From Narcine bancroftii (Eukaryota): a stretch of 64,000 nucleotides of DNA. The position numbers and the translations under genes are program-made. Where the stretch lies: contig NC_091476.1 in the NCBI RefSeq assembly GCF_036971445.1, positions 133,548,001-133,612,000 on the forward strand. The letters run 5' to 3'. Every line of letters begins with the position of its first letter. Positions within the stretch are counted from its first letter, which is position 1. The notes beneath the pieces are model-generated. The model saw only the letters and a list, made by a program, of their open reading frames with translations. It was not told the DNA's origin and did not search any database. This document shows, piece after piece, positions 10,856-61,988 of the stretch.

Positions 10856-11013
10856 GTAAGTTCACAATTTATCCTTGCATTTAGTGTAATTTAAGAAGTA
10901 GGTGAAATTTTATTTTTAATTCTTTGTAGACGTGTAATTTTAGGCACTTGCTAAACAGATACTGAAATGCTGAGCTCAGTAACTAAATGTTCAACAGGGC
11001 TGCACCAGAGAAA

Positions 11014-11737: not shown

Positions 11738-12843
11738 ATTTTAATTTATTTTAATTGGTCAACCCTATTAATTTGAACTGTAATAATAATTTTTTATGGT
11801 TAAAAGTGAATTAACAGTTTGCATCATTTTATTCTCTATTTTGCATTTTTTAGGCTTTACACTTTATAGATTTGTATCTGTTGGAGGGTTGTTTTTAATG
11901 AATGGAACTCAGCTCAATAAATATCTAAAACCAGTTTCTGTTTATTCCAGAAAATGTTTGTACATAACTAAATTTGAAATAACTTTTGCACCGCCTTGCC
12001 ATCTTGTAACAAGTTTCTAAAAGTTAATGCTAAAGTCAGAACCAATGATGAAGAGTGTTAACCTAATGATTTTGGCATATGGAAGAGAAATTTGAAATGT
12101 GGATTTGTATTTGCTGCTTTTGTTTGTTTTTTGCCACATTATTATCTAGTGCAGTGAGAAGGGTTCCTCTACATGTGATCTCATGTTAACTTTAATATTT
12201 ATATCGCCTTGTAAGTGGAAGAAGAGTATATAGTTGCAATGAAGAAAGATTAGATAGTTCCAAGCAAGAGCAGTATGAAAGCAGAATTGTGGGATCCATT
12301 CAGGAGCCTGATGTTGAAGAAGAGGTCTTTCAATCTTGTGATTTTACACTCTTGAGCCTTCTCAAGGGGAGTAAGGCTTTTTGCAACTCGCAGATAGAAT
12401 AAAATTGTATAAATTGAGTTATATAAATATTAAAATTAACATGAGATCACATGTAGAGGAACCCTTCCCACTGCACTAGATATAATTGAGGTCTATTCAT
12501 GTAAAAAAAGGACCCCTATGGGGCAGCATTTACTTTCTAAAGACCAATTAGAAGTATTCAGTGGTTGCCTGATTTTACATTTGTCAGTACTATCTTTCTG
12601 CCCAAGTTTGTGTCTCTGTTGGTATTCACTTAATGAATGTGCATGCTGCTAAAGTAGGAGTTGATGATTACATAAACCCCTATCTCTGCAACATTTGCAC
12701 CCAAGCAGATTTTAGGCTATTGTGTATTCCAATAAAGTGCTGATCAATTCCTTCATTTTTTGGATGACCATTTGTGAATTTGAATTTTTTGCATAAAATT
12801 CACATTTTCCCACAATATTAAATCTGTATGTGATTGTATAAAC

Positions 12844-14759: not shown

Positions 14760-15250
14760 ATTCCTTTCTTATCACTGAATTTCAACGCGAGCAACTCTGA
14801 CTCTGAGAATGATAGGTTTGACAAATTGACCCAAGGTCATGGATCAAACATGTTATCAGGAGGACATACTTCTGATTCAGAATCAGGCTCCAGTTTGAGG
14901 GAAGACCAACAACATTTAGTAGGTCCATGCAACTCTGAAAATGATAGGTTTGACAAATTGACCCAAGGTCATGGATCAAACATGTTATCAGGAGGACATA
15001 CTTCTGATTCAGAATCAGGCTCCAGTTTGAGGGAAGACCAACAACATTTAGTAGGTCCATGCATCTCTATTAATCAAGAAAAAGGTCCACCTGAAATTGG
15101 TACAAGACCTCTCGGTACAGATTCTGGCAAAGATGGTTCTATACCTTCTACAGGTACTGGGTCAATGGGATCATCGTCTACCACTGATCCTGGAAAGGAC
15201 ATGAACTCCGTCTCTCTATTCTCTGAAGCACATCAATTACCTTTTGAAAG
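14760..15250 (+). CDS. TTC3: TTC3-like large Ser/Gly-rich exon with internal 44-aa duplication
   Basis: tttttcAG acceptor, GTAAGG donor, 491 nt open; phase 0/2. Confidence 0.78.
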
Positions 15251-16182: not shown

Positions 16183-19100
16183 GTAAGAACAGCCTGGACT
16201 GATGGTTGAGATTTAGGAGTTTGAATCCCACCATGCTCGCTGATGAATTAATTCAAGCAATTAAATATATGTGGTAGAAAAAAATTGTGTTGATAATGCA
16301 GAAAAATAAACAGATTTTGATCTGGTTCCATTATGTCCTTCAGTGAAGCAAATCTGCAAATATTACTGAAAAATGAGCTGAGGAGGAATCTGATTAGGGG
16401 TAAAAGACAGAAAAAGGCTTGGTTGGGCCCTTGCAAGTTACTCGAACAACACCTCTTAATATGTAAGTATTGGATTTTAAAAGGCTTCCAGATTGACAGG
16501 TGAATATGCTTGAGGGTTATGCATCATGTGTTATGAGCAGAGATGAAGTCCAATTTGGCATCAAGCTTTGCACAGACCGAGGGGGCCAAAGGACTTATTA
16601 TTGTGCTGCACCGAATACAACATAGTCTGCTACAATTTATTACTTTTTAGGACATTAAAAAAAAAATCCCACTGCTGAGGTTATTGTAAATACTCGAGAT
16701 GTAATTTCTAACTGTGGAGTTTGTAATCAACTTCTTAAACTCCATTCACTTTCTTCATATTAAGAGGTGTTGTTCTATGAACTTGCAATGGTCCAAACCA
16801 ATCCTATTCCAGGCACCAACCATTCTCTTTTTTAAAAAATACTTGTGTAGCACATCTCCTTTAAACTTCAACTCCCCTCCCATTCTATCTTAAGTGCATG
16901 TCCGCTAGTATTTGGGATTTTCACTTGAGGGAAAAAGATCGACTGTCTACTTTCTTTGCCTTTACCACTGACATTTTATCTTTCAACTGATTATTTGATT
17001 TACCAGTGTATATTAACCACTTCTGGAACACCTGCAAATTGTTCTCATTTTATAGAATGTCTGTTACCAGGAAATCAAGAATTTATTGTCCATCGTAATT
17101 CCCCTTAAAATGATTGTTGAATCACTGCACACCTGCTGTAGTGACCTAGTTCCCATGAGTGCTGTTAGGTTGGAAGGATCAGAGTTTTGATCAAATGATA
17201 TAAGAATATACCTGAATGTGAGGAAACAAAAATGGGTGTTTCTCCTCTTTGGAAATGTTACCACACAGAAATAAAAAAATAATAAACTGAATAATGATGG
17301 CTGGCTGTTCAGGTTGCTGCCATTGAAGGCCTCGGGTGCAGAGTGTTGCATGATCAAGCAAAAAGAGGGGGACAGCAGCTTCTGTTGCATCCAAAAGGAG
17401 GTGATGAATTCAGTAGTTGTGGAAGAAATTACATTGCCCACATTATCTGTGTCTCTACATCTCAATGAGTGAAAGTTGTAAGTAGGAATGTCTGAAATGA
17501 AAGCTGGTGGCAGAGAGCCTCAACCACATTTAAAGAATATCTGGAGGAGCCATGGATGACCAGTGAAACTGGGATAAGCAAAAGTCAATTTATAGCCAGT
17601 ATGGACTCAATGGACTGAATGGTTGTCGCCTGTGCTATTTCTATGATTTTTACAGACAATTACAAATCTGATTTCAAGTGAACCGGTACGGACTTGAAGG
17701 GCCGACATGGCCTGTTTCCGTGCTGTAAACGGTTATATGGTGCATAATTGTAAATAATTTCCAATTGTTGCTAATAGATGGACTTTAAACCACCAGGAGC
17801 TATCATTCATTTACAGCAACAATAATTTCAATTGCATTATTCTTGAGATTAATCTGAATAAGAAAGCTTAGTTCATTATAAAGATATTATTCACGATGTT
17901 GAAATTTAGCATACTTACAGAAAGTGTAGAGCAAATTCTTCATTCATCTTTGAAACTTGGAGTGGATGATATAATGAACTCCACATACACCCAGACAATA
18001 TAAAGACAAGATGCAAGTTCAAAAAAATGCATATTTGGAAAATGCATTTGAAATGATGCCAATTATTTTTCTCCCTTGTTAGAGGAAAGCTTCATATCAA
18101 ATCAAAGTTTCAAAAAAAAAATTATGGCATAAGCTTACCCTAAAAAGAAGCCTTTCTCAATATTACTTTTTTATCTTGATTTTTAAAAAAAATTTAATTG
18201 CTTGACCATAGATTTTTTTTCCCCATTGACATTGAAGGACAAAATTGTGTGCTGATAAATAAACTCCTTATATTGCTTTATATGCTGGTCCTGGAGTTGG
18301 TTTATTAGTGATTGTTAAGTTTATTACAGTCTCCAGGGAGGGGGAAGCCATTTAACCAAGAAAAGAATGAGACACAGCAATTTGCAGTTTGTCAAACAGA
18401 AAGTGAAGGAAAACATACCATCTGGGTGGTCTGTCAACACACAGTGGAGGTGCTTTATCATTCTTCCATTGATCAGTGTTGAGGTGTTGGAATTTTGTGA
18501 AAATGAATATGGCTTCATGTTTTCTCTCATTTTTATTTTCCTTTTATGGCAAATAGTAACAATAACGCAAATAAAGTCATTTGGTTACATATTTCAGGAA
18601 ACTGGATAGATTTCAGTTAGGACGGGTATTGTAATAAAATGTATTGTTTAGAATTGCAGGATTGTTGGACTTGTTTTCCACTTTTGAACAGGTTGGTCAA
18701 ATTTTTCTTGACCTGTTCAGATTCAATTAGTGATGTCTGTTCTGGGTAGAGAACTAAATTGACTATCAGTTTGTTGGAAATTTGAATCAGAACTTTTTTT
18801 AAAAAATAGATTGTTTGCTAATTTAACAGAACATTATCATTTCTGATATCCCCAACTTATTCTTTGGAGTGGCTTCTGTGTTTCAGATTCTTGGACTGGG
18901 ATAAAGCAATTATTTGAAATAATTATCCATCAGATTAAGCTTTCTTGTTTCAATTTTTCTGAAATGAAACAAAATTATTTTTTAAATAGAATTGTTCTAA
19001 TTTCTTTTCTAGAAAGACAAATTGCTATAGTTATTGAATATTGGACTAAATACACAATATAATTCAATGATATTAGAGATTAGTTTGTAATTTAAATTGT

Positions 19101-19482
19101 GGTGTTTTGCAATCCTCCTGCAAGAATAGTTTATAGTGGGGAGCTATTGATAATTATTACAGTGGGATATCTAAAGGCAATTTTTAAAAGCTTTATCGTC
19201 CTTATCCAGTGGGCTCAACAAACAGGAGAATAATCCTCTGACCTCTGATTATTTACAAGGTTATCTTAAATACCTCAAAATTATCCTCTAAGGTCACTTA
19301 TTTTGAACTTAATTCATCAACTGATCTTGATGTTTGTTTGATTTGAATCATGCCTTCTGTGGCATTAATGATAATGTAGAACAGCAATTTTGAAGACAAA
19401 GGGAAACCGGAATAATCTCATTGTAAGACCAGATCTACTTTTTAATAATTATAAATTACTGATGAATTTCTTTGTATTGCAG

Positions 19483-19602
19483 GTGGAAGAAAGGTTGCTG
19501 AAATGCAAGTTGAAAGAAGCTTCTGAGGCACTGATGGTGTCTAATTTTAGGAATGCTCAGGAAAACTATTTGTATGCCCTTAAATTGATCAAAGAAAAGA
19601 AA
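19483..19602 (+). CDS. TTC3: TTC3-like exon (VEERLLKCKLKEASEALMVSNFRNAQENYLYALKLIKEKK)
   Basis: tgcAG / GTAAGT; TPR-like helix; phase 0/0. Confidence 0.85.
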
Positions 19603-20224
19603 GTAAGTTTCACTGTTAGAAAATTTAAATTATATCATGTCAGATGAACCTTTATCATCCTCATCATTAGTTTAAAAACCTGGGAAAAGAACTTGGTTTC
19701 CAATTTGCATTTAGTTTTTGAAAAAAAGTACAACTCTGATTATCCAAAGTGGTTGGAACCGGGCATATGTCAGATAAATGCTTTTTCGGAGCACTGGTCA
19801 ATTTTTAAAAACAGCCCAGTAGGAACAGAAAATCATTTGTATCAATCTTTAGACAACAACAAACAGCATGGGAAGGCTTTTAAAGCATTAAAATAATGTT
19901 TAATTTTCACCAAAAAAATGCTGGTTGCTGCCAATCACTGAGACCTCCCAACCACAGCTGATTCCTGACACATATGCACCACTGCTGCTGATCCCTGGAG
20001 AGGCTTCCTGGACTAGTGAAACACTCACTGGCGAGTCAGAGGGCTACTGTCTCCTCATTCACTGGAACTCCTGACTCCAAATCCTCCCCTGCTAGGCCTA
20101 CCACACATATATAAACACCAGGGAGTCCAATGTGCGGTAGTAGGCCGAGGTGAGGGTTCAGAGTTGGCATCAGGGAGCTCCGCTGTGCCAGGGGAGGTGA
20201 GGAAACGCCACTGAGCCCGAAGGC

Positions 20225-22215: not shown

Positions 22216-23081
22216 TCATTTATCTATTTTATCTTTGGCTACCCTTGTTATGCTATGGATATATTCAAGTTTTGACTGCGAATGCAAGCAAATTTTAAAA
22301 TTTGGGTCTTGTAGTTTTCATTTCCAAATATGTCATAAAAGATATTCATAGCTCTTGGTGATTAACACATAGTAACACTGGTTTTCTGATGGTATTTGAA
22401 TATCATATTATTGAATATTATTATTGATGTTGATTTTTCTTTGAATATATTTATTTTAATTCTGCAAAGTAAATTTCCTGATCAACGACATGCTCAAAAG
22501 TTCCTTTGTAATGGAAACCTCATAATTGGGTATTGGGTAATTAGGTAAGCATAGAATTTATGAAATGTATAACAAAGACATTGTTTATGTATTTCCAAAT
22601 GCATAGTCAAATCTAGGGTGTTTTGAACTGTTAATAGGAATCCCTGTTAATCATACTATCTTTGCACCTGAAGAATGGACAATCTGGTCAGTCCAGACCA
22701 AAAATAAAGGTTTCATTTTCTTTCCATGTAACCTTAATTGGAGAAGTTTCACTCCCAGTGAAAGCAGGCATCAGTGATTAAATTCACTATTATGTCCGGT
22801 GCGCCCTCTTAATCTGCATTTGGCTCTGGAAATGCTTGATTATGATCTGACGGCTGCATACTATATACTTGGGTGTCCCAAACAACCAATGATTGGCACC
22901 TTTCAGTCGTTCCAATGCACTTGCTGCGTACTCCTCCTAATCCATTAGCTTGCATATTCTTCCAGCATCTAAATCCTCTCCAAGACTAATGTGCCCAGCA
23001 CATTCATGCAACTGCTGGCACAAGTCATATTATCTGCATACCTGACACCTTCCTCATCAACAATCATTTAGCTCAACTGCA

Positions 23082-23530
23082 CTGCGCTGGATGGGTCACG
23101 TCTCCAGAATGGAGGACCATCGCCTTCCCAAGATCGTATTATATGGCGAGCTCTCCACTGGCCACCGTGACAGAGGTGCACCAAAGAAAAGGTACAAGGA
23201 CTGCCTAAAGAAATCTCTTGGTGCCTGCCACATTGACCACCGCCAGTGGGCTGATAACGCCTCAAACCGTGCATCTTGGCGCCTCACAGTTTGGCGGGCA
23301 GCAGCCTCCTTTGAAGAAGACCGCAGAGCCCACCTCACTGACAAAAGGCAAAGGAGGAAAAACCCAACACCCAACCCCAACCAACCAATTTTCCCTTGCA
23401 ACCGCTGCAATCGTGTCTGCCTGTCCCGCATCGGACTGGTCAGCCACAAACGAGCCTGCAGCTGACGTGGACTTTTTACCCCCTCCATAAATCTTCGTCC
23501 GCGAAGCCAAGCCAAAGAAAAGAAAAAAAG
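23082..23530 (+). mobile_element. RTE LINE 3' fragment (same family)
   Basis: Near identical to ~2336-2770; A-rich tail. Confidence 0.95.
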
Positions 23531-24561
23531 AGATATATTTGTGAATCCTAGACAGTTCTTATCAGCCAGAAATTTGGATCTGCTAATCAAGTGCACATTG
23601 CTGTGATTCAGTGGACTGGGTACACTCAGCAATAGCCAAAAGGTAAATCTGGAACCCGCTGTAAAATCTGAAGCCTCTGTCATGTTTCTCACTCATTGGA
23701 AAACAGCTGAGATCACAGAACTGTGGAATCAAGTTGACTTCATTGGTAGAAGAACTCATGATTTTTAATTAATCTTTACAACAACATCCTGACCATTCTG
23801 AGCTTCATTATGACAAGAAATTGCAGGGAGGCTAGAAAAAACGACACTTGCTGCTTGAAAATGTGTAATGTCTTTAATTCCTCTTTTTAATCTTTGGGCA
23901 TTGGAGAGTCAAGATGGAGGAAAAATACCCAAGAAAGCATTGAGCACTTGTGTGTGGTGTGCAGAATGTGGAAAGAGATTACGACATCTCAAGAAATCCA
24001 CCATCTTTTTGAGTATCAGTAAATTCTTCTGGGCCTGAACTCTTGAGTCTGAACCCACAAAGACCTCATCAGCCACCTCAAAATTCACACAACAGCAAGA
24101 AGCAAGTGGTCCTCAATTTCTTCAGACTACCCAAGAGGAACATTTATTGAACCTTGTGTAAAATCAACTGCTCGAGCACCCACAATGTGAAGCTTGTTTC
24201 TGCTTCAATCTCAGAAGTCCAATTTATTCCAAATCTCAGCTGTTTTCCAATGAGTGGGAAACGTGACAGAGGCTTCAGATTTTACAGCGGGTTCCAGATT
24301 TACCTTTTGGCTATTGCTGAGTGTACCCAGTCCACTGAATCACAGCAATTTGCACGTGATTAGCAGATCCAAATTTCTGCCTGATTCATCTGTTTGGTTC
24401 TTCATTGTCAGGTATCAACAAAAAGCTTACCAAAATGTAGCTTTCGTTGATTTTAGGATGATATAGAAATATGAGATGTAGTCTGGTGTTATTAGTTTTG
24501 TTATATAAAAATAATAAGGATGTTTCTACTTTGTCAATTTAAAGTTGCATTTTATTTGCAG

Positions 24562-32858: not shown

Positions 32859-35800
32859 GTAAGTTTAGTTATTGACTTGTTTTATTTGTTTCATAAATGT
32901 TTAAATTCACAACAAAATGTATAAATGAAACAAATGTATGAATAGTAGGAAGAAAAATGGGGGAATATGGTCAAGATATCTGCACGTGTGCCTGATCTTC
33001 TCCCTACGTCATGGTTGTGCAGCTGTAATGTGTTGTTTTAACACTTGTACTCTGTGCCCCATCTGTTGAAAGCAAGTGTGCCATATGACTTCTTCACCAC
33101 CTTGTCCACACTTTCAGTGTACTTGTGCTTCCAGGTGTCTCTGTTCTGTTACATTCCCCGGGGACCTGCGTATGTCCTGCCTTGGTTTAACTTCCCAAAA
33201 TGTATCATTGCCTTTGAATCTAGCTGTGCTGCGAATGTTGTGCAAAGTGTATTGGAGCTGTTATTCTCATTGCAAGGCTGGAGTAATTGTTTCCTTGTGG
33301 TTTACATCCCCTCGCTGAATAATTCTGCTTTTGCAATCCAGCTTCGCCCTCTAATACAGTTAGAAATTCTGTACTTTGCTTGTTGAACTGGACTTGTGCA
33401 TGGCTGAACTTTGTAGAGAAATAGTGGAAAAATGCTGGCTTAATGCAATGATTCAAGATTATTTTCTTGCCATTTAGTAGAACAGAAAATGTAATATAGT
33501 TATGTAATCTTTTATCTGAAATTGTGAAAACCAAAAAAACAAACATTTTTTATTGCATGTGCAGTATATTTTCAGGTGTTAAGCTGAGTTTGAGCCAGTT
33601 TTAGTTTGAAATCTTACTGTATGTTTTAAAAATACAAGGATTGTCCTCCAGCAGAATTTTAGCCATCATGGTTAAAGGGTATTTGACAGAGGGAGTGGCT
33701 CGGGAAGAGAGCGGCAGCATGGCTTGGGCTGGTGAGTGAGGAGAGAAAGGCAGCGCGACTTGAGTGGGGAGAGAGTGGTCTATCTCACTTTGTTTACCAC
33801 CCCCATCCAATGTCGCTGTGGACCACCCCCACAGCAATTACTTAAAAGTACTGCTGTTTTAATATTATTTCGTTGTCCAAAAAATTCTGAAAATGTCTGG
33901 TCCCAAGGATTTCGGATAAAAGATTAAACATCTGTATTACACAAAATTTCCTTTAATCTACCAAAAGGCAGACAAAGATTTGCCAACAGGAAGAAATTGC
34001 CCAGCATCCCTTATAGTCCAAGGGGAAAAAAAAGAAAAAGAGAGTCCCTCCAGAGTTGCTGAGTGTCCATGGATTCACCTCCAGTTCTCCCACAGCCACA
34101 GAGCCTTCAGTCCAATCCATCGCCAACCTGAGCTACAGATCCAAATCATTGATATGAGCAGGAAGCTATCAGTATCCTTGGCACTCTTTCGCATCTCTCT
34201 GAAACCTGGTGCCCTTTCAACGAGTCTTAAACAAGCCTCTTGACTGCATTTGCCCACAGCCTGCATAGGTTCCTTGCCTCGAGTCACCAACAGCCTGTGT
34301 CTTCTTTAGCATTAGAGCCCCTTACTAATTTGCCACTGTGGTTGCTGTCCCGTAGGGTGATTTCCTTTGCTACTCCTCAAAGGAAGGGAGGTTGGGGTGT
34401 TTGCTATCTGGTGCCCAGTGATCAACTGCAACCAATTTTTGCATTTTTAGAAACGGCAAAGGGGGAAATTGCTCACTTGTAGTATTTTCCAAATTGTTCT
34501 CCTAACTCCAGCGAGTGAGCCTGATGTGCCATTGCCACAACTCATGGTGGGAACAGTGCACTGACTTTGTATCAGATTAGATCTGGCACTGAGGCCACTG
34601 TTTCCTTCATTTTGATGGAGGCAAACAGCTGCTCAGCTCCAACATAAATAGACATGCAAGGCAAGTTGATACTGGGAGGCAAGTGGTAAAACTGACAGCT
34701 TGACAATGAATTCTGTGGGAGGAGGACTCCTTTAACAAACCCCTCAGGGTCATTTTATTGGGACCAAAGGCTTGATCTTTGTAGACAGGACAAAAGGGGA
34801 ATTTTAGAGGATGGTTCTGAATATCTATGAACAATTTTGTGTTTCCTCGTGCCCAAGTTGTGTTCATGAGGAAGCAGAAAACGAAAAAACAAAAATTAAC
34901 CAATCTCGTCTGCTGCTAAATGGAATTGTGATTATCTGAAATGGTCAGGACTGGGCCCATTTTGGATACATTTTTTTGGAGAACTGGTTATTTTTTAAAA
35001 CAGCCCAGTAGCAACAGCAAATCACTTGTAACAGTGTTCAAACAACAACAAACAACAAGGGAAGGCTTTTTAAGCATTAAAATGAAGTTTAATTCTCACC
35101 AAAAAAAAAAATGCTGGACATCACCGATCACGAAAATTTCTCCACCGACGCCCCGCTCGTGCCAGGAGCCTGAGGGTCCCGCTCCTGCCTGAGAACTTGA
35201 GGTCCGCTGCTGCCACCACCGTGGGCCCAAGGTCCCCAGTCGGTTTGGCTCTGAAAACATTTTGGATAAATGAGGATTTTGGATAATTGGAGTCTACTGT
35301 ATTTGATCTGAAAAGTTCAATCACATTTTAATTTCAAACAAATGGGTGAAACGATAACTGTAGTAACTACTATCCAGAAAAAAAGCCACTCGGAGTCAAA
35401 GTGGGCTCTTTACTGTGACGTATATGATTAAATTTTTAACAAAGGCCAGATGCATTTTAAATTGTTTATTAGTGAACACAAAAGGACTCATAATGTGGTA
35501 ATGGTAACGATAATGTCCTTGCTAACATTTCTAACTATAACGACCAGTCTCTTCAGTAATGTAAAATGTATCGTCCAACAACCAACGTGTACCGTTGAAC
35601 AGAAAATATCGGAGCCTTACTCACCCACCGTCTATCCCACCATACCAGTCAACACGGGATAACTAACTGCCCCAAATGCACGCAACCCCTGCATGTGCGC
35701 CAACCCAAATCAATAGTGCATGTGCACTGGGAGATACCGAACGCGTGCAACCCTGGGATGCCGTTGATGTCTGCAGGCAAACCAACATTGATAAACAATA

Positions 35801-36028
35801 GGCCTTTGGCTCTTACACCAGTCCCTAAATATTATCTCAAATAATAATTACACAATTTTAAATAACAATCATATATAGTAAATTCTAATATTATGTTGAT
35901 CTTTTTTCTGCATTCTTCAGAGGTCAGAGGTTACTAGCACATAGCCTTGAAAAGAATGATCTTTACCACCACTCTGGACCAGTAAAGTCTGTGTAGTGGA
36001 CAAGGGATAAGGTCCAAAAACAACAAAA

Positions 36029-36910
36029 ATAAAGTCAGGCAGTTTTTAGTTTTCTTTCACTGTCACAGCATTATACAAGGAAATTTAAATTCCTCCGGAC
36101 AGATCTGTGGCTTTTTAACAATAACATGTTATTTTTAGCAGCTTTGTCAAGAAATTCTGTTTCAAGGACACTGTCTCTATTTGCATTCCAATGTGTATTG
36201 GGTTGTTCATCATTGTGCTTCTGCAGGTTGAATCAGCCAGAGACACACAGAATCCACTTGATCATCATTTACATCATAAATCACCTTTGATTTCACAGCA
36301 CTGTTCTGGCCTATTGCTTCAGCACCCCCAGAATATTAGATCCATTGCGAGACCAATCCCATAATGTGATTATTTTCAGTCACCCCGTAACATCCAATAT
36401 TTTTCTAAGCACCAGCAAAAGTCAAACCAAACTTGATTACATCCACTGGCTTTGAAAGAAAACTTAAAAAACAAGTCACAGATAGGCACAGCTCCCTTTA
36501 TGTCAGGGACAAAGGGGAATTCCACACCATGAACATTGGCACATATAGTAACAAAAAAGGCATTTGGATTCAAATTCTAATTGGTTGGATTAGGAATAGT
36601 TCTGTAAGCACCAATCTTGGCATGCACAATATTCACTTTTCCATATTTCTCTGCTTCTTTGGCTGCATTGGTAGACCAAGCTCTAGTAACCACATAATCT
36701 GCACTCCTCTTTTAATCCAGTAAGATTTAAAGTTACAACACTGAACTGACCAGTTCCACCTCCTGGAGAAAGATCACTTTGTAGTTTTTCAGAAATTTTT
36801 AGTTTTTGCAGGTAATTTTCTGCAATGTTGACAACTTTGAAGTTTGCTGATCCATGACTCATTTCCAGAACACTAATTCCAACCTCTCTGTAATCGAACA
36901 GCTCTTTCTG
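36029..36910 (-). pseudogene. PSAT1: Processed (intron-less) phosphoserine aminotransferase copy, frameshifted and internally deleted
   Basis: [96 protein letters not shown] are collinear with PSAT1. Confidence 0.93.
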
Positions 36911-37627
36911 TGCTTTTGAATTCTGGTAAACAACCACAACTTCTTTCAAAGGGTACTTAATAGGAAGGGTCTTTCTGTCTCGGATCACTCTTCCGAGCTC
37001 AATAATTGACTGCATTTGGGCGATTGCTGCCTCAATACGTTTATCAATAACAGATTCCCTTACTTGTGGGAGCATGAGCTAGTAAATGCTTTGATTATCC
37101 TTTGATCAACCAGGTGCCTTATGTTCTGGTACACGAGTTCAGTGATAAATGGTATAAAGGGTGCTATCAGCCAGCATGTCAAATAAAACAGCAAGCAATG
37201 TTTCCAAAACTCTTTCACAATTCTCAATATCATTTTCACCCTTTAACTTTCTATGATTTATTTGCACATACCAATTTGTGAGAATGTCCACAAATTTGAC
37301 TAGTCTGGGCACCATAGTGTAGAGTCTATATGTTTCAATTTCTACTTCGAAAAAATGGATTAGGGTTTGTGCAAATGAAAGCATCCATTTATCCATGATG
37401 TCACTGACCTCAGCTGTACTTCCATTGAAAATAAATTGAAAACCCTCTTCCTTCTGCAATCTCTGAATATTCTAAATAAGGAATCTGGATACATTGAATC
37501 AAGGTAGGAAGTCAACCTTGAGAACATCTCTCTCCTCCTTTAAACTGTAAATTTTCTGCTCTTGCAACAGCCTCAATACATCTGCTCCATAGGTGTTAAC
37601 AATGTGAATTGGATCTGGCTAATTCTT
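36911..37627 (-). pseudogene. IARS1: Processed (intron-less) fragment of cytosolic isoleucyl-tRNA synthetase (post-KMSK region and anticodon-binding domain)
   Basis: KN*PDP..YGAD.LRL, LQKEE, DKWMLSF, YRLYTMVPRLVKFVDILTNWYV, MQSIIELGRVIRDRKTLPIKYPLKE; stops and frameshifts present. Confidence 0.95.
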
Positions 37628-37877
37628 ACATTTTGTGTTAATAGTTGTTATGCAGCAACTGGTAACCAACAATCCCGTAACTGTTCTCGCATGCATCAGC
37701 AAAATAATGCAGTTGAGCAGATGTCACCATTGCAAAGTTTGTGGGTTTGAAACATCTGTCAACCATAAAGCTTTCCAGCTTCTGAAGATCCTGAATCCAA
37801 CACATTCATTCCTGTACTTATTTTTGTTTCTTAAATCGTTTGAACAACTCAGAAAACGATGTTTCAATTGTATTCAT

Positions 37878-39720
37878 TGTAGTGGCGGCTACACTGCTAA
37901 CTGAAGGATCGCACAACCAGACTGGTTGAGTTCAGTGAGCAAAACTGATTTATTGCAGGCTACCTGACTGGTCTTATACTCCCAGCCCGGACCTGGCTGA
38001 GAACCACGCCTGGGGGGCCCCGACGTCACCGGTGCAGAGGTCGAGAGGAAACCCCCCGACGGTGCCATTTTGGCCGGCTGCCCTGCCATGTACGTGACAG
38101 GTGGGGCTGGTTCACCTGCCTAATGGTGTACAGCCACACAGCCCCCCCCAGAACCAGCACCAATGCCCTTTTTTGCTGGGCGGCCTTGCTTCTTGGTTTG
38201 GGCCTCAACTACTGGCTCGGTGGGGTCGAGGTGGGCTGGCTTTAACCTGTCCACCGTAAACAGTTCCCTCTTACTACCGATGCCCAGTGTGAAAGTGGAT
38301 CCTGAGCGCTGGATGACTTTGTACGGCCCTTCGTATGGTCTTAGTAGAGGTGCTGTGGACGGGCACTGCCTGATAAAAACTTATTCTGTGGAGTACAGCT
38401 CACTGGGGACATAAGATGCCCATGTGCCATGTCTGGGTGTCAGTAGGGGTGTGAAGGAGTCCAACTGGGCCTGGAAGCAGGGAAGTAGACCGTGTGGTGA
38501 CTGCTGGGGGTTATGAGGTGCGTTGACGAATTCACCAGGTAGGGCTAGTGGTGCACTGTAGACCAGCTCGGCTGATGACGCCTGTAGGTAGTCTTTGGGT
38601 GTTGAGCAGATGCCCAGGGCACCCAAGGCACCTCATCCACCCAGTTGGAGCCGGTGAGGCAGGCCATAAGTGCCGACTTAAGGTGGCGGTGCAATCGCTC
38701 AACTAGCTCGATTCCCAGCCTGTTGTGAGTTGTGCCCAGAGCACAGAGTGCACTGGGCGCCCCGATCACTGGTGAGATGGCTCGGGACGCTGAACTGGGG
38801 AACCTAACCGTTCAAAAGCGCTCGGGAGCAGGAGTCTGTGGAGGCATCTGGCATCGGGATTGCCTCGTGCCAACGAGTGGTGCGGTCTACCACTGTGAAA
38901 AGATAACGGTTACCTCGGGAAACGGGTAAGGGTCCGACGATGTCCACATGTATGTGGCTGAACCGTTCCCGGACGTGTTCGAAATCTTGTATGGGCTCTC
39001 AGGTGTGCCTGTGTACCTTGGAAAGCTGGCAATGGGTGCAGGTTCTGGCCCAATCTGCTTCCGAATCCAGTGCCAGACGAAACATTCTGCCACCATACGA
39101 ACTGTGGACCTGATGGAAGGGTAGGAAAGGTCATGGATATGGTGGAAGACTTGCCTGTGCCACTGCTGGTGAACCACTGGACGCGGGTTGCCCATGGAGA
39201 CATCACAGGACGGTGCCCTCGCCATGAGGAGTCAGGAGGTCCTGGAACCGCAGGCCCGTGATGGCAGTCTCGAAGGCCCGCGTCTCCTCGTCGGACTTCT
39301 GGTCCCAGATGAGCTGGTCGAAGTCGAGGCCGGGAATCAGCGCGCAAAATGACCATACCCGCGAACTCCTGTAGCCCCTTGAGGTTGTTGTTGCCCCTTG
39401 AGGTTGTCTGGGCGAGGGAACTCCCTGACTGCAGCGACCTTCGTAGCGGCAAGTGTAGCTCCTTCGGCCGTGATGGTATGGCCCAGGAATTACATGGACT
39501 CTTTCTCGAACTGGGATTTGGCCGGATTGATCGTTAGGCCGAAGTCGGCCAGTCGGGAGAAGATGGTGCGCAGGTGAGACTTGTGTTGTGCCCGGTCGCT
39601 GCTGGCAACAAGGATGTCATCCAGGTAAATGAATACAAAATTCAAATCCCTGCCCACTGTGTCCATAAGGCGCTGGAAAGTCTGGGCGGCGTTCTTGAGC
39701 CTGAATGACATGCGTAGGAA
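37878..39720 (-). mobile_element. Gypsy (Ty3) LTR retrotransposon 3' half nested in the BEL element
   Basis: LTR 37878-38140 (TG..CA, minus-strand AATAAA), G-rich PPT at 38141-38150, integrase remnants, RT 'LKNAAQTFQRLMD..FIYLDDILVAS'. Confidence 0.92.
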
Positions 39721-40208
39721 CCCAAGTCCATAGTCATGTGCACTGGAAGATACTGATTGCGTGCAGCCTCCAGACCCTGCAACGCTGCCGATGCCTATAA
39801 TCAAACTGACAGTGGTAAACAACAAGCCTTTGGCTCTTACAATAATAATACGTAAAATTGATTAATGCTATTCTCAATGATTCCAACCATTTGCTCCTCA
39901 TCAAAGGCAAAACTGGATATCAATTATGGAATTGCCAATAGTCTATCATCTCTTATGCAGAAAAATATGCATTTCTCGTCGAAATATCTCATTACTATTT
40001 GAAATTGCTGTTTTTCAATATTTAATATAAAACTTCAATATTCATATACAAGTTTTGTCTTCAGGATATCTTTTCAGCGCAGCTATGTTTAACTATGATA
40101 CACATAGTGCACAAGCCAATGTCTGCAGAGTTGGGAAGAGAGTTTGATTTTAATTTGAAATGTTCTAGAAGGAGTTGTTAATGTTATGGTTTGTGATTCT
40201 TTAATTAG

Positions 40209-40384: not shown

Positions 40385-41049
40385 AAGTCTGGTGTTTAAA
40401 AAGACATTAAAAACAGCTGAAGCCATACATAGATCAAATTGGTTGGTTGAAAATTTAACTTGTGTTGAGAGAGGTGGTGTGAGTGCAGGGTAGACTTTGT
40501 TTTGTTGGTATTTGAGAAGTTGGATCCTTGTGACTCATGAGGGAGTTCAGTGTTTACTCAGTGTGGTACATAAAAAGTATAAATTTTATGATAGATCATA
40601 ATGAGTTTATTTTCTTACACATTGTGTAATGTATATATGCTCAAAATTCTTGAGCTGCAGCTGAACAGGAACTTGTAATGCAAAGCTAAAATAGTAAAAT
40701 AATTGAATTCAATTAACAAGTCTGGTGTTTAAAAAGACGTTAAAAACAGCTGAAGCCATACATAGATCAAATTGGTTGGTTGAAAATTTAACTTGTGCTG
40801 AGAGAGGTGGTGTGAGTGCAGGGTAGACTTTGTTTTGTTGGTATTTGAGAAGTTGGATCCTTGTGACTCATGAGGGAGTTCAGTGTTTACTCAGTGTGGT
40901 ACATAAAAAGTATAAATTTTATGATAGATCATAATGAGTTTATTTTCTTACACATTGTATAATGTATATATGCTCAAAATTCTTGAGCTGCAGCTGAACA
41001 GGAACTTGTAATGCAAAGCTAAAATAGTAAAATAATTAAATTCAATTAA
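40385..41049. repeat. 333-bp tandem duplication of intronic sequence
   Basis: 40385-40717 and 40718-41049 identical except for about 4 substitutions. Confidence 0.95.
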
Positions 41050-46549: not shown

Positions 46550-48610
46550 TATAAAAAATGGAAAGTCTAAACCCACTACCAAGAAAGAAGCTGGCCGAAA
46601 AAAGAAAGACAGAATTTTTATCTCATTAGTCAACATTTCTACCTTCATAGCAAATCAAAGATTATAAAAGAGTCCCCACAGTGTCTGAAATTTTAAATTC
46701 AAATCAGAAATTGTGCATCTAATCTTTAAGTTAAACATGACATGACATACATAATTAGGCGGGGTAACACCCCTCCATCTGAGCAACACCACCCACCTAA
46801 CCATAAGAGAAATAAAAGTCCATGTAGCTCAGATGTCATTAACATTATGTCATTCTCTTCAACAATACCAAATAAAGCAGTTTAGGTATTTGGTTTGAAA
46901 TTAACTTCAAAATTGCAGAGAAAGTTTGAAATACTTTGTTCCAATATTTCTCAAGACTGGCATGTTCAGAACATATGAATTAATTATTTCCATTGATGCA
47001 TTTATCACAATGAGGTGATACATCCACTTCAAAATGAGATAGTTTGACTTCAGGCATGTGAGCCCAATGGACTACTTTAAATTGTAGGAAAGAGTGGTGG
47101 ACTCATAAAGAAGAGGTATTAACCAATTTGAAAATTATATTCTAAGTTTCTTCAGCTGTAGGTCCTGTTCCCAGGCTTTTTAAATTTTATCTGAGGGAGC
47201 CTCTCTTGTTCCCAACATAAATGTTAGATATTTAATCATTATAGAAAGGTTATAAATTTAAAAATTACCCCAATTAAAAACTTAAAAAGAATGGAGGTTT
47301 AGCTTTACCAAACTTAATGTTTTATTATTGGGCAGTCAGTATATGAAACCTTTGTTTTGGTTATAATAACTGTGAAGACTGTCCAATATGGATATCTCTG
47401 GAATCTAATTTGCAGACGATGCCACTTTAGTTGCCCATTCAGAGCCAGCTCTTCAGCGCTTGACGTCTTGCTTTGCGGAAACTGCCAAAGTGTTTGGTCT
47501 GGAAGTCAGCCTGAAGAAAACTGAGGTCCTCCATCAGCCAGCTCCCCACCATGACTACCAGCCCCCCCACATCTCCATCGGGCACACAAAACTCAAAACG
47601 GTCAACCAGTTTACCTATCTCGGCTGCACCATTTCTTCGGATGCAAGGATCGACAACGAGATAGACAACAGACTCGCCAAGGCAAATAGCACCTTTGGAA
47701 GACTACACAAAAGAGTCTGGAAAAACAACCAACTGAAAAACCTCACAAAGATAAGCGTATACAGAGCCGTTGTCATACCCACACTCCTGTTTGGCTCCGA
47801 ATCATGGGTCCTCTACCGGCATCATCTACAGCTCCTAGAATGCTTCCACCAGCGTTGTCTCCGCTCCATCCTCAATATCCATTGGAGCGCTTTCATCCCT
47901 AACGTCGAAGTACTGGAGATGGCAGAGGCCGACAGCATCGAGTCCACGCTGCTGAAGATCCAGCTGCGCTGGGTGGGTCACGTCTCCAGAATGGAGGACC
48001 ATCGCCTTCCCAAGATCGTGTTATATGGCGAGCTCTCCACTGGCCACCGTGACAGAGGTGCACCAAAGAAAAGGTACAAGGACTGCCTAAAGAAATCTCT
48101 TGGTGTCTGCCACATTGACCACCGCCAGTGGGCTGATATCGCCTCAAACCGTGCATCTTGGCGCCTCACAGTTTGGCGGGCAGCAACCTCCTTTGAAGAA
48201 GACCGCAGAGCCCACCTCACTGACAAAAGGCAAAGGAGGAAAAACCCAACACCCAACCCCAACCAACCAATTTTCCCCTGCAGCCGCTGCAACCGTGTCT
48301 GCCTGTCCCGCTTCGGACTTGTCAGTCACAAACGAGCCTGCAGCTGACGTGGACTTTTACCCCCTCCATAAATCTTCGTCCGCAAAGCCAAGCCAAAGAA
48401 GAAAGAATTCTGTTACAAAATTTTCTCTAATTTCTCTTCTTGGATCCTCTTCCTAGATCTCTAAATAAATTAACTAATAATCCTGTGGTTAAACATACTT
48501 TGAGTATATGGATACAATTAGAAAACATTTTGGTTTAATGAGATTGTACTCTCTCTAGTCATATTTTTCTAATTATTTCTTTAAGCCATCTACTACTCAT
48601 TTTTTTTCGT
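46550..48610. mobile_element. Old L1-clade LINE in two orientations (3' part on -, ~46550-47250; upstream part on +, ~47260-48610), split by an RTE
   Basis: Minus: QFKVVHWAHM, LEKYWNKVFQ; plus: KKNGGLALPN..YYWA, WISLESN|SVTKFSL, NPVVKHTL. Confidence 0.7.
47409..48407 (+). mobile_element. RTE LINE 5'-truncated copy (same family), open from FADD region to the end
   Basis: Near identical to ~1781-2770; ORF 47460-48347. Confidence 0.95.
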
Positions 48611-49433: not shown

Positions 49434-49651
49434 GTCTTAATGGGAATCCAGCATTACTCTGTGTGTATGTAGTCTAGAAAAAGCAAAGGCAACATTTATC
49501 AGGAGTGATGACTGCTGAGATGACAGCAGTCATGTAAATATATTTTAATTTCATAGTTGAAGGGATAAATTCTTATTTCTCAATTAAGTTATCTGCACTT
49601 TAGGTTATTCTGTAGAGACTGAGTTAAGAAGAAAAAAATTACATTTTTCAG

Positions 49652-49802
49652 GTATTTGGAAGAGGCCACAGCAGAAGTGCGTGAAAACAATGACATGAAT
49701 TCGAAAATGGAAAATTATTGCCAAAAAGAGGAAAAGATGCAAAACTCAATTTCAAAAACGGATATTGATGATGTTCTTCAAGATGAGCTTTCCTCACTTA
49801 AT
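49652..49802 (+). CDS. TTC3: TTC3-like exon (YLEEATAEVRENNDMNSKMENYCQKEEKMQ...LSSLN)
   Basis: tttttcAG acceptor, GTGAGT donor (frame stays open to 49910, so the end is uncertain). Confidence 0.65.
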
Positions 49803-50030
49803 GTGAGTTCAAATTTCAATAAAAAGCTTAAATGCAAAATTAAACCAAATGGGATGTCATACAAAAAAAAAACAATTGAATGTTTTTTGTATGTGGAGGG
49901 AAGTAGATGATTGTCTGCATTAAACTCTCCACGTTTTCTTCTATGGGAGCCAGGAATAAATCAAATGGACAGTCACAAAATAACTAGCCATCCAACTCCT
50001 TACTAACAATAAATATATTGACATTCATAG

Positions 50031-50972: not shown

Positions 50973-52321
50973 GTAAAATTTGAAACTACAGATTTTTTTT
51001 TATTTCAGAATGTTTTGCATGTTAGCAACATGAAATTAAAAAAAAATTGGAATTGAGCCTCTGACATTGTTGGTCTGCAGCATTTAGGCTCTCGGGTTTA
51101 CTTTAATCAAAAAGCGTTAAGTGGAAGACGCTTTAAATCTAAAAAAAACTAGAAAATGGTGGCAGTGTTGTTTTATGTTGGTTCATCAACCTGAAACACT
51201 AACTTTGTTGCAATACACAAATGTGCTGAAAAATCTTAGCAGAATGGTCATTGTTTACTAAATTACAGTGTTGTGACCACTGAAAAGCTTGGTCACAGGA
51301 AATCTTGTGGGCAAATTGTCAATACTGTAGTTGGGTTAATTGTTGGGTTTTATCAGCAATCTACAAAAGTCTAGTGAAACTCAACAGATCCTGTCTGCAG
51401 CATGCATGTGAAGTAATAGGCTATCAACATTTTGGGCCTGAGCCCTTTGCTGAGAATGTGGAAAAACTGGTAGACACTTGAATAAAAATGTGTGGGGAGA
51501 GGAGGGAAGAAGGGGAAGGAGTGCAGGCTAACAGGTCAGAGGTAATTGGTGGGAGGATGGAAGAGAAAAAAGCAAAGACATTATAGGGGGAAAGACCAGA
51601 GGGCTAAGAAGGGTAGCTCTATAATAGGAGAAGGAAGGGAAAGGAGTGAATAACTAGAGGAAAGGAGAGAGGGATAGGGAAAGAGAGACCAGGGAGGGGG
51701 TTTAAGGAAATTGAAGTCACTGTTGGATGTGGAAGCTGGTGGAGAAGTAAGGACAATGTGAACCCTATACTTGTTGTGCATTGGTGTCTTTTCTTTGGGG
51801 GGGGGGGGGCATGTGTGGCAGGGAAGACAGAGAGAGAGAATCAGGGCAGATTCAGAGAATTTTCTGTTTTAGTGTCTTGAGATTTAATGTCTGAACCCTA
51901 TTCTCTATGCCATATTTTCCTCTAGGACGATATAGAGAAAAATAGGACAATGTGTTGTGTCTAAATGTAAAGGACTTTTTAAAAAAGATGACAGATATGT
52001 ATATTTTCTTGTATTCAACTGCTGAATGATTATAATCTTAGTGATCATATTATGAATAATTTAGAGATCCAGCATGGTAACCAGCCCGTCTGGCCCATGA
52101 ACCCATGCTGCCCAAATACACTCGTATAACTTATAAACCTACTAATCCCATATATCTTTGGACTATATAAGTAATATTTCTGGTGGCATGTTGACAGCTT
52201 AAATATGATGTGGTAAGAGAGTCTCTCTCTTCCCCTCTCCCCAGTTTGTCTAATTAACTATTTCACATCAATGGTTGTTCTAAAGGAAATCCAAATTATA
52301 TGTTTATTGTTTATTTTACAG

Positions 52322-52471
52322 AAAACGTTTATGATTCTATATCATGAGAAAACTCACCTTTTGAAGAGCTATGAGAAATCTCAAAATGTGCATGATCAAC
52401 TTTGTTCTGCTACCCAGAATGAAATCAAAACCTGCAAGGAAAAGCATGAGCAACTTTTGTTCAATGAGAAG
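52322..52471 (+). CDS. TTC3: TTC3-like coiled-coil exon (KTFMILYHEKTHLLKSYEK...LLFNEK)
   Basis: ttttacAG/GTAGCA, 150 nt, heptad-like; phase 0/0. Confidence 0.82.
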
Positions 52472-52645
52472 GTAGCACTACTCTTATTCCAAAAATCTAA
52501 AGTTTACTGTTTCAAGGATAAGCATGAGATATCCTGTTATTTAGTTGAAGCACATTAGATTCAAGATTATTTTACTGCCATGTAATAAAACCAAAAATGT
52601 GATATTACACAAAATTCCCTTTAGAATTCCCAGCAGAAATTCACC

Positions 52646-55208: not shown

Positions 55209-56743
55209 CAGGTACACAATCCTTTATTAGGAACCCTTGGGGTACAGTGTGTCCAGAATTTCAGATTTTTCTGGATTTCGGAAGGCCAGATTTAAACCCA
55301 CCTGAATTGTGCTGTCGTATCCAACCCCGTCCCCTTCCAGTTGCGCTGCCATGTCCCCTCCCCCTCCCCCTCACCCGCCCGACTCACGCTGCCAGTCTCC
55401 CGCCCGACTCATGCTGCCCCCGTCTCTCCTCCTTGTCCGCCCGACTCGCGCTGTCAGTCTCTCTCCACACTTGTCGCTCTCTCCCCCCACTTGTCGCTCT
55501 CTCCCCCCACTTGCCGCTCTCTCCCCCCACTTGCCGCTCTCTCCCCCCACTTGCCGCTCTCTCTCCCCACTTGCCGCTCTCTCTCCCCACTTGCCGCTCT
55601 CTCTCCCCACTTGCCGCTCTCTCTCCCCACTTGCCGCTCTCTCTCCCCACTTGCCGCTCTCTCTCCCCACTTGCCGCTCTCTCTCCCCACTTGCCGCTCT
55701 CTCTCCCCACTTGCCGCTCTCTCTCCCCACTTGCCGCTCTCTCTCCCCACTTGCCGCTCTCTCTCCCCACTTGCCGCTCTCTCTCCCCACTTGCCGCTCT
55801 CTCTCCCCACTTGCCGCTCTCTCTCCCCACTTGCCGCTCTCTCTCCCCACTTGCCGCTCTCTCTCCCCACTTGCCGCTCTCTCTCCCCACTTGCCGCTCT
55901 CTCTCCCCACTTGCCGCTCTCTCTCCCCACTTGCCGCTCTCTCTCCCCACTTGCCGCTCTCTCCCCCCACTTGCCGCTCTCTCCCCCCACTTGCCGCTCT
56001 CTCCCCCCACTTGCCGCTCTCTCCCCCCACTTGCCGCTCTCTCCCCCCACTTGCCGCTCTCTCCCCCCACTTGCCGCTCTCTCCCCCCACTTGCCGCTCT
56101 CTCCCCCCACTTGCCGCTCTCTCCCCCCACTTGCCGCTCTCTCTCCCCACTTGCCGCTCTCTCTCCCCACTTGCCGCTCTCTCTCCCCACTTGCCGCTCT
56201 CTCTCCCCACTTGCCGCTCTCTCTCCCCACTTGCCGCTCTCTCTCCCCACTTGCCGCTCTCTCTCCCCACTTGCCGCTCTCTCTCTCCCCACTTTCCGCT
56301 CTCTCTCCCCACTTGCCTCTCTCTCTCTCCCCACTTGCCGCTCTCTCTCTCCCCACTTGCCGCTCTCTCTCTCCCCACTTGCCGCTCTCTCTCTCCCCAC
56401 TTGCCGCTCTCTCTCTCCCCACTTGCCGCTCTCTCTCCCCACTTGCCGCTCTCTCTCCCCACTTGCCGCTCTCTCTCCCCACTTGCCGCTCTCTCTCCCC
56501 ACTTGCCGCTCTCTCTCCCCACTTGCCGCTCTCTCTCCCCACTTGCCGCTCTCTCCCCCCACTTGCCGCTCTCTCCCCCCACTTGCCGCTCTCTCCCCCC
56601 ACTTGCCGCTCTCTCCCCCCACTTGCCGCTCTCTCCCCCCACTTGCCGCTCTCTCCCCCCACTTGCCGCTCTCTCCCCCCACTTGCCGCTCTCTCCCCCC
56701 ACTTGCCGAATTTTAAATGTTCGGATAAAGGATTGTGTACCTG
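55209..56743. mobile_element. Tc1/mariner-type MITE with perfect 19-bp TIRs
   Basis: TA|CAGGTACACAATCCTTTAT ... ATAAAGGATTGTGTACCTG|TA. Confidence 0.88.
55460..56708. repeat. 20-bp minisatellite (CCCCACTTGCCGCTCTCTCY)n, about 62 copies
   Basis: Seen directly; blocks of C/T variants and a few 22-bp units. Confidence 0.97.
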
Positions 56744-56797
56744 TACCTCACATTTTTTGGATTAAACTCAATGTCACCAACTCAACAATAACACATA

Positions 56798-58540: not shown

Positions 58541-60400
58541 TGTGGCTTCACTTTTGAGACCTTAGGTTCATTGAAGTGATGTTAATTCAGCATACAAGTC
58601 GATGCTGCAAGTACCTCCCCGCTGCCGCTCCCCTACAACTCCCCACCACTGGGAGCCACTATAACCTGCTCCTGAAAACTCATGAACACAAAATAACGAC
58701 ACACGTAGCTGCAGGTAAATCAGAGCATGTTTACTTGAGTCACGTGCGTATCTTTTGAAATACTGAACCATGCACTCCATGTCATGACATTTTGACGTTC
58801 CGTGTCTGTTCACTAGACTTCTGGGAATGTGGTCTATCTATAGCCCTGCTACATGTCCCCCACTCCAAAACTGGCACTATCACCTGGTAGTTTTTTGGGA
58901 GGTCAACCCCGGCATTGGACTGCTGTGGCTGTTGAATAGGGGCTGTTTTGTCAACGTGGGCAGATTTGAGTCTGTCAACTGTGAATGACAGAGACTGCCC
59001 TGCAATGTCCAAGAAGCAGGTTGACTTTGTTCGTTTTATCACCCTATATGGTCCCTTGTAAGGCATCTGCAATGGCTGTTCACGTGTTCCTCTACGTACG
59101 AACACATATTCACAGTCCTTCAGTTCGTGTGGTACAAAAGAAACATGTTTGCCATGTGATGATGGTGTTGGTACAGGGATAATTTGCCTATGGTATCCCT
59201 TAGTCTGCTCAGCAGCTCTTTAGGATCTTCATCTTTACTGGATCCATGTGGTCTTTAGTTTTGCCAGTGTACTAGATAAATGAAGACGTTGACCATGCCA
59301 CACCCTACTGCATCCATAACTCGCTGAGTGGTCTGAGTTGCATTTATTTTAAAACCCAAAAGACATAGGTAAAAATGAGAACAATCTGAAAGATTGCCAG
59401 TTTGCTCTCCATTCTCTGGTGTGCTTTTGGACTAAATGTAATGGAGGTGCCCGTGGGCTGATGGACCTGCGAATTATCCCCTCCTCTTCCATTTTGTGGA
59501 ATTCTTGTTTAGCTAATTGCAGTTTCTCTGGAGGCAAACGATGTGCCATAGCATGAATGGGAGGATCCCTGGTAGAAATGTGGTGAGTTACTCCATGTTT
59601 CGCGATGGGAATCGAAAACTGCAGAGTTGTAATTTTGGGAAACTCTTCTACAAGTCTATAGAACTTATCAACAGTCTTAAGCAGGGCTTGAAGGCACAGC
59701 ACAGGAACATGCAATTCTGCCTGGTGAATAGCTTGCAAGGTGGTACTATCCACCAACCAAACTCCTTTTAAATCTACCATGAGCAAATGAGCTCAAAGGA
59801 AATTGGCCCCGAGTAGCTGTCATAACACTGCAGCTATAATAAAAAGCCATATGTGAATTTTCTCCTTGAACTGAACATTCATTTTTGGTGCCATATGTGG
59901 GTATGTTACAACTATTGACTGCTGAGAGTTGGAGGTTAGGGGTTGGATAACATGTATCGAAACTGGTTGGTGGAGAAACACTAACCTCCAATCCTGTATC
60001 CACCAAATATTTATGTTGGGATAAGCTGTTCCCAAGGTTCGTAGATTTTCGGCCAACCATTACAGCCATTAATGACGGTTGGCCAGGGCGTTTCCCGAGA
60101 ATGCACAGAGTGGCAGGCATCTATTTGCATTGAATCCCCAATGCCTAGGGCAAAAACACCAAATAGAAGTGTGGACAGGCTGCCTGATTTGAGATGTTGC
60201 CTCCTTATAGGAGCTGGTGTATTAAAAGCATTGACTTGGGAAGTAATGTCAACAACAATGGAGGTGCTGGGTGCAGACTGCTGTGACGTAGTGACATTGT
60301 CCACAACATATTTCATCATGTCGCTTCTGTTAAAATCTGGAATTGATCCATCATTAATGAGGAAAGAGCCTGTATAGTTGAGCTTTGACCTCCAAAGAAC
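58541..60400 (-). mobile_element. Second decayed Gypsy element (different subfamily)
   Basis: LTR 58541-58853 (TGTGGC..GCTACA), PPT GGAGTGGGGGACA, integrase tail PYKGPYRVI, RT start 'RLPPEKLQLAKQEF..MEEEGIIRRS', protease YLVDTG; large internal deletion. Confidence 0.88.
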
Positions 60401-61635: not shown

Positions 61636-61988
61636 TTTTGCCTAAATTCATCCATATTTTCCAAGCTGTACCGGTTATTGTTCCCAAATCCTTTTGTGAT
61701 TAATTAAATTGTCTAATTTTTTCTTTTATTTGGAAAAATGAGTGGTCCATCACAAAAAATTTTTTCCTTCAAAATATTTTTAAAAATGGAGGTTTGGCAT
61801 TGCTTAATTTTAGCATTTGGACTTAACTAAATTGAAACCAAACTCTTAAAGTGTGTCCGACAACCAAATTGTCAGTTAACTTGGAAGTCAAAAAAAAGGC
61901 AAGGGTACTCCCAAGCATTGAAAGATTTAATCTCTTGGTCAATCCCATCTTGAAGCACCTTGGTATGATGAATCCAAATAATAATATA

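Follow-up and report, generated by a model that had tools for sequence, protein, structure and literature searches.

A spliced IARS1–PSAT1 chimera within a Pao/BEL-like element of the ray Narcine bancroftii, probably formed by template switching at a microsimilar join

A stretch of 64,000 nucleotides from Narcine bancroftii (contig NC_091476.1, positions 133,548,001 to 133,612,000; hereafter, the window) contains an open reading frame in which sequence resembling IARS1 passes into sequence resembling PSAT1. The locus raises the question of how parts of two unrelated host genes came to be joined in one frame and whether the product could have served as a protein. A sequence-only reading had proposed that a short tract shared by both parents guided a template switch and preserved the frame, and that the ancestral element could have expressed a tRNA-anticodon-binding domain fused to a PLP aminotransferase. 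To address this question, protein and Pfam searches of the window were combined with alignments of 4 of the 13 listed sequencing runs (X1, X5, X6 and X8, of which X5 was guessed to be RNA) on positions 35780–37760. The features described below are listed in Table 1.

Table 1. Features of the chimeric locus in the window, in sense order
Feature	Position	Strand	Evidence or remark
LTR-like copy A, probable truncated 5' LTR of Pao/BEL	39700..39841	minus	begins TG
Nested broken Gypsy-type remnant: RT piece, integrase pieces, G-run, LTR	37878..39715	minus	Pfam
Pao/BEL pol remnant, broken	37640..37877	minus	PF05380 Peptidase_A17 on 37641–37805
Spliced IARS1 fragment, residues 606–858 (possibly from ~599)	36916..37637	minus	tblastn with P0001
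ORF of the sequence-only reading	36683..37075	minus	130 codons from ATG (about 131 residues); open via compensating frameshifts
Microsimilarity zone, both parents align	36903..36915	minus	contig loose ends in X5, depth arithmetic, end-point enumeration
Spliced PSAT1 fragment, residues ~26/28–362 of 371	36029..36909	minus	tblastn with P0384
High-copy 3' internal region, ending in purine-rich tract just before LTR	35818..36028	minus	X1/X8 depth
LTR copy B (3' LTR)	35460..35817	minus	TG at 35817; AATAAA at 35470; far end not fixed

The ORF exists on the minus strand and, as had been claimed, runs through the junction without a stop. In the protein search, its first ~60 residues matched IARS1 (E = 3.9e-21), the best IARS1 match among those listed being that of N. 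bancroftii itself (85% over the aligned portion), and residues 56–124 matched PSAT1 (E = 1.8e-13). With the PSAT1 half alone as the query, no protein match was obtained among 244 candidates, PSAT1 being reached via P0188. The exact ORF sequence was absent from the protein collection. The chimeric junction is real: contigs without a single difference from the window cross it in two studies (X1 record 4 and X5 record 13, X1 being possibly the source sample), and the join is therefore not an assembly error.

Both parts of the cargo correspond to spliced mRNA. Their alignments to P0001 and P0384 are continuous, with the introns missing, and at two intron starts in the genes of another vertebrate, marked by X6 loose ends at 36963 and 36809, the window continues without interruption. 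The IARS1 fragment includes the anticodon-binding domain (PF08264, E = 3.5e-9), contains four stops and four frameshifts, and differs from the mRNA-like contig at 28 of 316 letters. On its 5' side, the alignment departs near 37627–37637; in another X1 copy, the IARS1 stretch D-G-Q-K-M-S-K adjoins BEL sequence, and therefore the cargo probably started near residue 597. The PSAT1 fragment contains five stops, seven frameshifts and a deletion of 37 codons near 36374. At 36029, the PSAT1 mRNA-like contig departs and continues as the PSAT1 C-terminus. Thus, PSAT1 was left nine codons before the protein end, and its stop codon, 3'UTR and poly(A) are missing; no poly(A) tail was found downstream of PSAT1, where the longest A-run was 6.

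In sense order on the minus strand, the locus consists of LTR A, the Gypsy remnant, Pao/BEL pol, IARS1, PSAT1, a high-copy stretch, a purine tract and LTR B. The cargo accordingly lies between the Pao/BEL pol remnant and the polypurine tract with its LTR, with LTR-element sequence on either side; it takes the place of part of the internal ORF, and BEL pol is not resumed downstream of PSAT1. The pol remnant, presumably the RNase H region, gave a PF05380 score of 23.8 bits against a cut-off of 22.3, and depth was raised there in X1 and X8. In the same two runs, a depth peak was found at 35914–35980 within the 3' internal region (family loose ends at 35835 and 35992), the assignment of this region to the same BEL family following its position only. 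LTR copy A showed 74% identity to 35702–35817 (match spanning 35817–35688; 103 matches, 26 mismatches and 14 gap columns). Copies A and B differ by ~20%, somewhat more than the family copies differ. When 26 CA ends were tested for a target-site duplication, one 5-base match lying far out and two 4-base matches lying before the poly(A) signal were found, none of them convincing. Copies A and B are thus a likely rather than a demonstrated pair. Copy A is joined to the Gypsy RT near 39715–39700, a junction that apparently arose by deletion. The nested remnant (RVT_1, E = 5e-14; rve, E = 3e-6) has its own LTR at 38140–37878 (TG...CA) and, judging from its motifs, is taken to be of the Gypsy type.

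Several other features were recorded in the window. A tandem duplication of 333 bases (99% identity) lies at 40385–41049, ~550 bases outside LTR copy A. What we take from its motifs to be a second broken Gypsy-like remnant lies at 58782–60400 on the minus strand, three pieces of which gave no Pfam match. A young LINE, which we take to be RTE, is present in four copies that are 94–98% alike (473–2800, 10955–11740, 23046–23520 and 47409–48400). Pairs of inverted arms of 54–153 bases, 80–97% complementary, were found at 23561–24385, 61637–62909, 4126–4454, 12134–12491 and 16410–16809 and may resemble small non-autonomous DNA transposons. At 55300–56760, a 20-base unit is repeated in tandem (61 listed members, which overlap), with long repetitive ORFs on both strands, and a tandem duplication of 132 bases (99% identity) at 14800–15063 lies within an open frame of 176 codons that gave no Pfam match. 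Finally, possible host-gene exons were noted on the plus strand at 19480–19644, 49623–49910 and 52217–52558, with TPR-like (atlas score 0.89, a lead only) and coiled-coil-like stretches, the Pfam leads being weak. If these exons are real, the element is located within an intron in antisense orientation, and low-depth RNA-like contigs could be explained in this way. A low-depth contig identical to the window was present in X5, the run guessed to be RNA, which may contain DNA or intronic RNA; contigs cannot show expression.

The position at which the templates changed can be narrowed with two high-depth X5 contigs whose behaviour is that of the parent mRNAs. The alignment of the IARS1-type contig extends down to 36903, beyond which the contig reads I-R-S-L-E-K-Y-I-L-E, the sequence of Narcine IARS1. 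The PSAT1-type contig aligns up to 36915; upstream of this point it encodes the PSAT1 residues K-L-P-R-P-V-L-L and then Gln. Hence 13 bases (36903–36915) are common to both alignments, and the bin depth of 1204.5 is recovered from this overlap. The sequence-only reading had named the seven-base tract AAAGCAC at 36916–36910 as shared; the tract is present in the window, but the exact core common to both parents comprises at most six bases. Its first base is not shared, because the PSAT1 contig departs at 36916 and PSAT1 has Gln there, not Glu, before Ala (Gln in 10 of the 10 cartilaginous-fish proteins printed). The A of the window at 36916 is not the family letter either, since the letter found there in 22 X1 contigs (depth 188 of 219) is of the IARS1 type. 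In the other direction, the similarity extends to 36903 beyond one forced mismatch at 36909, which must be of the PSAT1 type because IARS1 has Leu there. With 36916 being IARS1-type in the family and 36909 being PSAT1-type, the crossover therefore falls within 36915–36910.

The amino acids fix seven matches and one mismatch among the 13 overlap positions, which gives a floor of 7/13. According to the end-point enumeration, an alignment of the IARS1 contig that ends at 36903 requires agreement with the window at 9–12 of the 13 positions, for mismatch costs from 1.34 to 4, the lower of which was estimated by hand from a single X6 loose end; between the parents, the count may be one lower, because the PSAT1 contig is ~10% different from the window overall. 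The parents would share about 9–12 of the 13 bases, a value to be read as a bound, as the IARS1 letters at 5 of the 13 positions were deduced. In simulated random joins, at least 7 of 13 matches occurred with a frequency of 0.03, at least 9 with 0.0015, at least 10 with 2e-4, and an exact run of at least 6 with 0.002. Thus, the microsimilarity at the IARS1/PSAT1 join exceeds chance, with the shared count being a deduced one. The join is located mid-exon in both genes: the IARS1 coding sequence continues past 36903, and PSAT1 exon 2 begins ~10 bases before 36915, as deduced from isoform P0346. It should be noted that in Heterodontus six entries (P0346, P0397, P0401, P0405, P0406 and P0409) represent a read-through gene model in which CEP78 is joined to PSAT1 from exon 2 onward; these models mark the PSAT1 exon boundary. 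The 13-base parent overlap, the mid-exon position in both genes, the LTR-element context and the presence of the same join in other copies support the switch guided by microhomology that had been suggested for this locus.

The chimera is not confined to the window. Among 921 aligned X1 contigs, many of which are element flanks, 57 were at least 99% identical to the window, 141 were in the range of 95–99%, 318 in the range of 90–95% and 405 below 90%. X1 record 4 is the locus itself, whereas records 5 and 6 cross the same join at 13.7% and 15.0% difference; a further X1 contig links IARS1 at 37113 with PSAT1 at 36419. Divergence from the window amounts to 11.6–15.1% for the six X1 copy records listed, against 8.9–10.1% for the two parent contigs, and since the copies are more different from the window than the parents are, they may have radiated from one parent-like master. 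Common differences at 36885, 36916 and 36931 were carried by 19–25 X1 contigs, which suggests between about ten and a few tens of copies, these being contig numbers and not a copy count. The summed depth of ~200, compared with 9–10 for the locus, was likewise not taken as a copy number. Organism B (X6) was considered as a second species with the join and was rejected: its own genes have a depth of ~63, and the bridging contigs have a depth of 2–3 and occur beside record 17, which is identical to the window, so that they are probably carried-over DNA of organism A. In organism C (X8), the contigs extend no further than 18 letters across the join, below the 31-letter rule, and provide a weak hint of its presence.

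It is considered highly probable that a Pao/BEL element co-packaged two host mRNAs, that three template switches and integration followed, and that the product was copied further and then decayed. Under this scheme, a Pao/BEL LTR retrotransposon would have packaged the host IARS1 and PSAT1 mRNAs together with its own RNA. Three changes of template by its reverse transcriptase would have produced the sense-order arrangement of element pol, IARS1, PSAT1 and the element 3' end. The IARS1/PSAT1 switch would have used the similar stretch of ~13 bases with its exact core of up to 6. The product would have lost the remaining pol, retained the LTR ends and been copied on as a non-autonomous element via the enzymes of intact elements. 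We infer that the switching was performed by the element's own enzyme and that the spread proceeded by retrotransposition. The copy in the window would then have decayed neutrally, received the Gypsy insertion and lost its 5' part.

The remaining question is whether the open frame has a meaning of its own. That the frame is preserved at the join is true: both proteins read x-A-x-K-E in register, and X1 record 6 spans the join with 1 gap in 234 bases. Since this common stretch provides both the similarity and the frame, preservation of the frame is a side effect of similar codons lying in register; microsimilar joins were in frame with a frequency of 0.40–0.46 in the simulation and 0.36–0.41 among the window's own pieces, the baseline being 33%. 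The ORF is open, but it is not intact: frameshifts near 36799 and 36764 compensate each other, leaving ~12 residues off-frame, and a third one near 36700 terminates it. The frame is open because the first two cancel, and its length is an accident. Altogether, the window copy has 9 stops and 11 frameshifts. Of 35 listed differences in the host-derived parts (five element-flank rows were dropped; the rows are the best-supported ones, not a random sample), 34 were placed, with 17, 8 and 9 at codon positions 1, 2 and 3 (p = 0.47 against one third), and this copy, taken by itself, bears no sign of selection. An intact frame under purifying selection, the mark of a functional retrogene such as Bs1, was thus not found in the window copy.

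The anticodon-binding-domain/PLP-aminotransferase fusion proposed for the ancestral element is not supported. The IARS1 piece lacks its own start and the first ~600 residues, a part that presumably carries the HIGH motif and the editing domain, and PSAT1 lacks both ends; the cargo has no upstream start codon of its own, other than through pol. No protein spanning IARS1 and PSAT1 was present among 120 of 639 matches or among 150 of 323 matches in the protein collection, and three long-reaching matches inspected (P0124, P0222 and P0228), of a set that also includes P0164, P0196 and P0246, were plain IARS1 or PSAT1. Considering also the stops, frameshifts and codon positions given above, a fusion enzyme from this cargo appears unlikely.

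It could still be argued that the frame was selected, pol, IARS1 and PSAT1 having formed one long frame in the founder as a functional fusion or as protection from nonsense-mediated decay; such an explanation adds to template switching and does not replace it. Apart from the in-frame join, it may draw on the amplification of the family, on three window residues (37637–37629) that align with IARS1 Q-K-M and lie in the Pao-segment frame, and on the copy in which D-G-Q-K-M-S-K adjoins BEL. However, a stop separates the Pao segment from these three residues, microsimilar joins would be in frame at the above frequencies anyway, and the decay, the codon-position counts and the lack of a spanning protein among the matches listed argue against it, so that we regard selection of the frame as unlikely. 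It is likewise doubtful that there was a BEL lineage with pol, IARS1 and PSAT1 in one open frame, amounting to tens of copies, possibly pre-dating the organism C split and selected for RNA stability or a packaged fusion protein.

Template switching also has to be weighed against a fusion at the DNA level, in which two separate retrocopies were joined by microhomology-mediated deletion and the copies arose via segmental duplication. Microhomology suits end joining equally well, and such deletions occurred at this locus (between LTR A and the Gypsy RT, and of the 37 codons in PSAT1); yet this route requires two independent insertions in the same orientation in one element, with loss of both poly(A) tails and of the PSAT1 3' end, and a single join is common to all the bridging copies seen, which makes it very unlikely. 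LINE-made processed pseudogenes and chimeras are characterized by a poly(A) tail, 5' truncation and target-site duplications. The ray copy is similar to such pseudogenes in being an intronless, decayed copy of housekeeping mRNAs but differs in that its 3' end runs into an LTR element. That a LINE enzyme built the chimera by template switching, and that the product inserted into a BEL element whose middle was subsequently lost, is highly improbable: young LINE copies do exist in the window (RVT_1, E = 7e-34 at 752–2791), but poly(A) is missing, PSAT1 is 3'-truncated, the IARS1 piece is internal and BEL pol is not resumed downstream, and these traits are hallmarks of the LTR route in the available part of PMC5131818. 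A read-through or trans-spliced IARS1–PSAT1 transcript, or an assembly artefact, would account for two spliced pieces in frame but can practically be dismissed, as the join falls inside an exon of either gene, IARS1 and PSAT1 are carried by sequences that differ in length in Mobula hypostoma and in Scyliorhinus torazame, and identical contigs from two studies cross the join.

The joint presence of the two genes invites one further thought. IARS and PSAT1 are both upregulated by ATF4 in mammals, according to the part of PMC9941348 available, and one may speculate that ATF4 was linked to the joint capture of IARS1 and PSAT1. If the frame had been selected after all, the family would testify to retrotransposition in germ cells exposed to amino-acid stress. 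A literature search combining IARS, PSAT1 and retrocopy revealed no paper, and no case of an LTR-mediated retrocopy in cartilaginous fishes was found among the literature matches listed.

The mechanism favoured here, template switching within a Pao/BEL element, is already known, and the ray case agrees with LTR-mediated retroposition involving three template switches and subsequent amplification, as set out in the available part of Tan 2016 (PMC5131818). According to that part, LTR retrocopies consist of partial mRNAs replacing internal ORFs and undergo secondary spread, microsimilarity with a median of 6 bases was found at 25 of 29 junctions, and in 14 of 17 young fly cases the longest ORF was in frame with the parent (PMC5131818). 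The closest counterpart described there is CG4799_CG11924_r in the Pao element BATUMI of Drosophila, which likewise has a Pao/BEL carrier, two host mRNAs, three switch points and microsimilarity, as well as a replaced internal ORF, no poly(A) and 3' truncation (PMC5131818). Unlike the ray copy, which combines two in-frame coding pieces that differ by ~9–10% from their parents, it comprises a 5'UTR and a coding piece and is young and polymorphic (PMC5131818). The spread of one capture to several sites as a non-autonomous LTR element is shared with CG17604_r, CG10212_r and maize Bs1, the last of which is likewise multi-gene; however, Bs1 is described as encoding a functional hybrid protein (PMC5131818), whereas the ray family is older and decayed. 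LTR-flanked retrocopies of vertebrates include the four-gene 'Super' retrocopy of mouse, which is multi-gene as in the ray, and cases in zebrafish and chicken (PMC5131818). The survey, as far as its available part goes, covered zebrafish, chicken, mouse and human, sharks and rays not being among them (PMC5131818).

Thus, LTR-mediated exon shuffling with secondary amplification is extended to cartilaginous fishes. Should one copy turn out to be intact and expressed, it would represent a new chimeric gene, but the present evidence does not show this. The ray locus provides a clean example that in-frame joins need no selection, as the x-A-x-K-E stretch common to two unrelated proteins gives both microsimilarity and frame.
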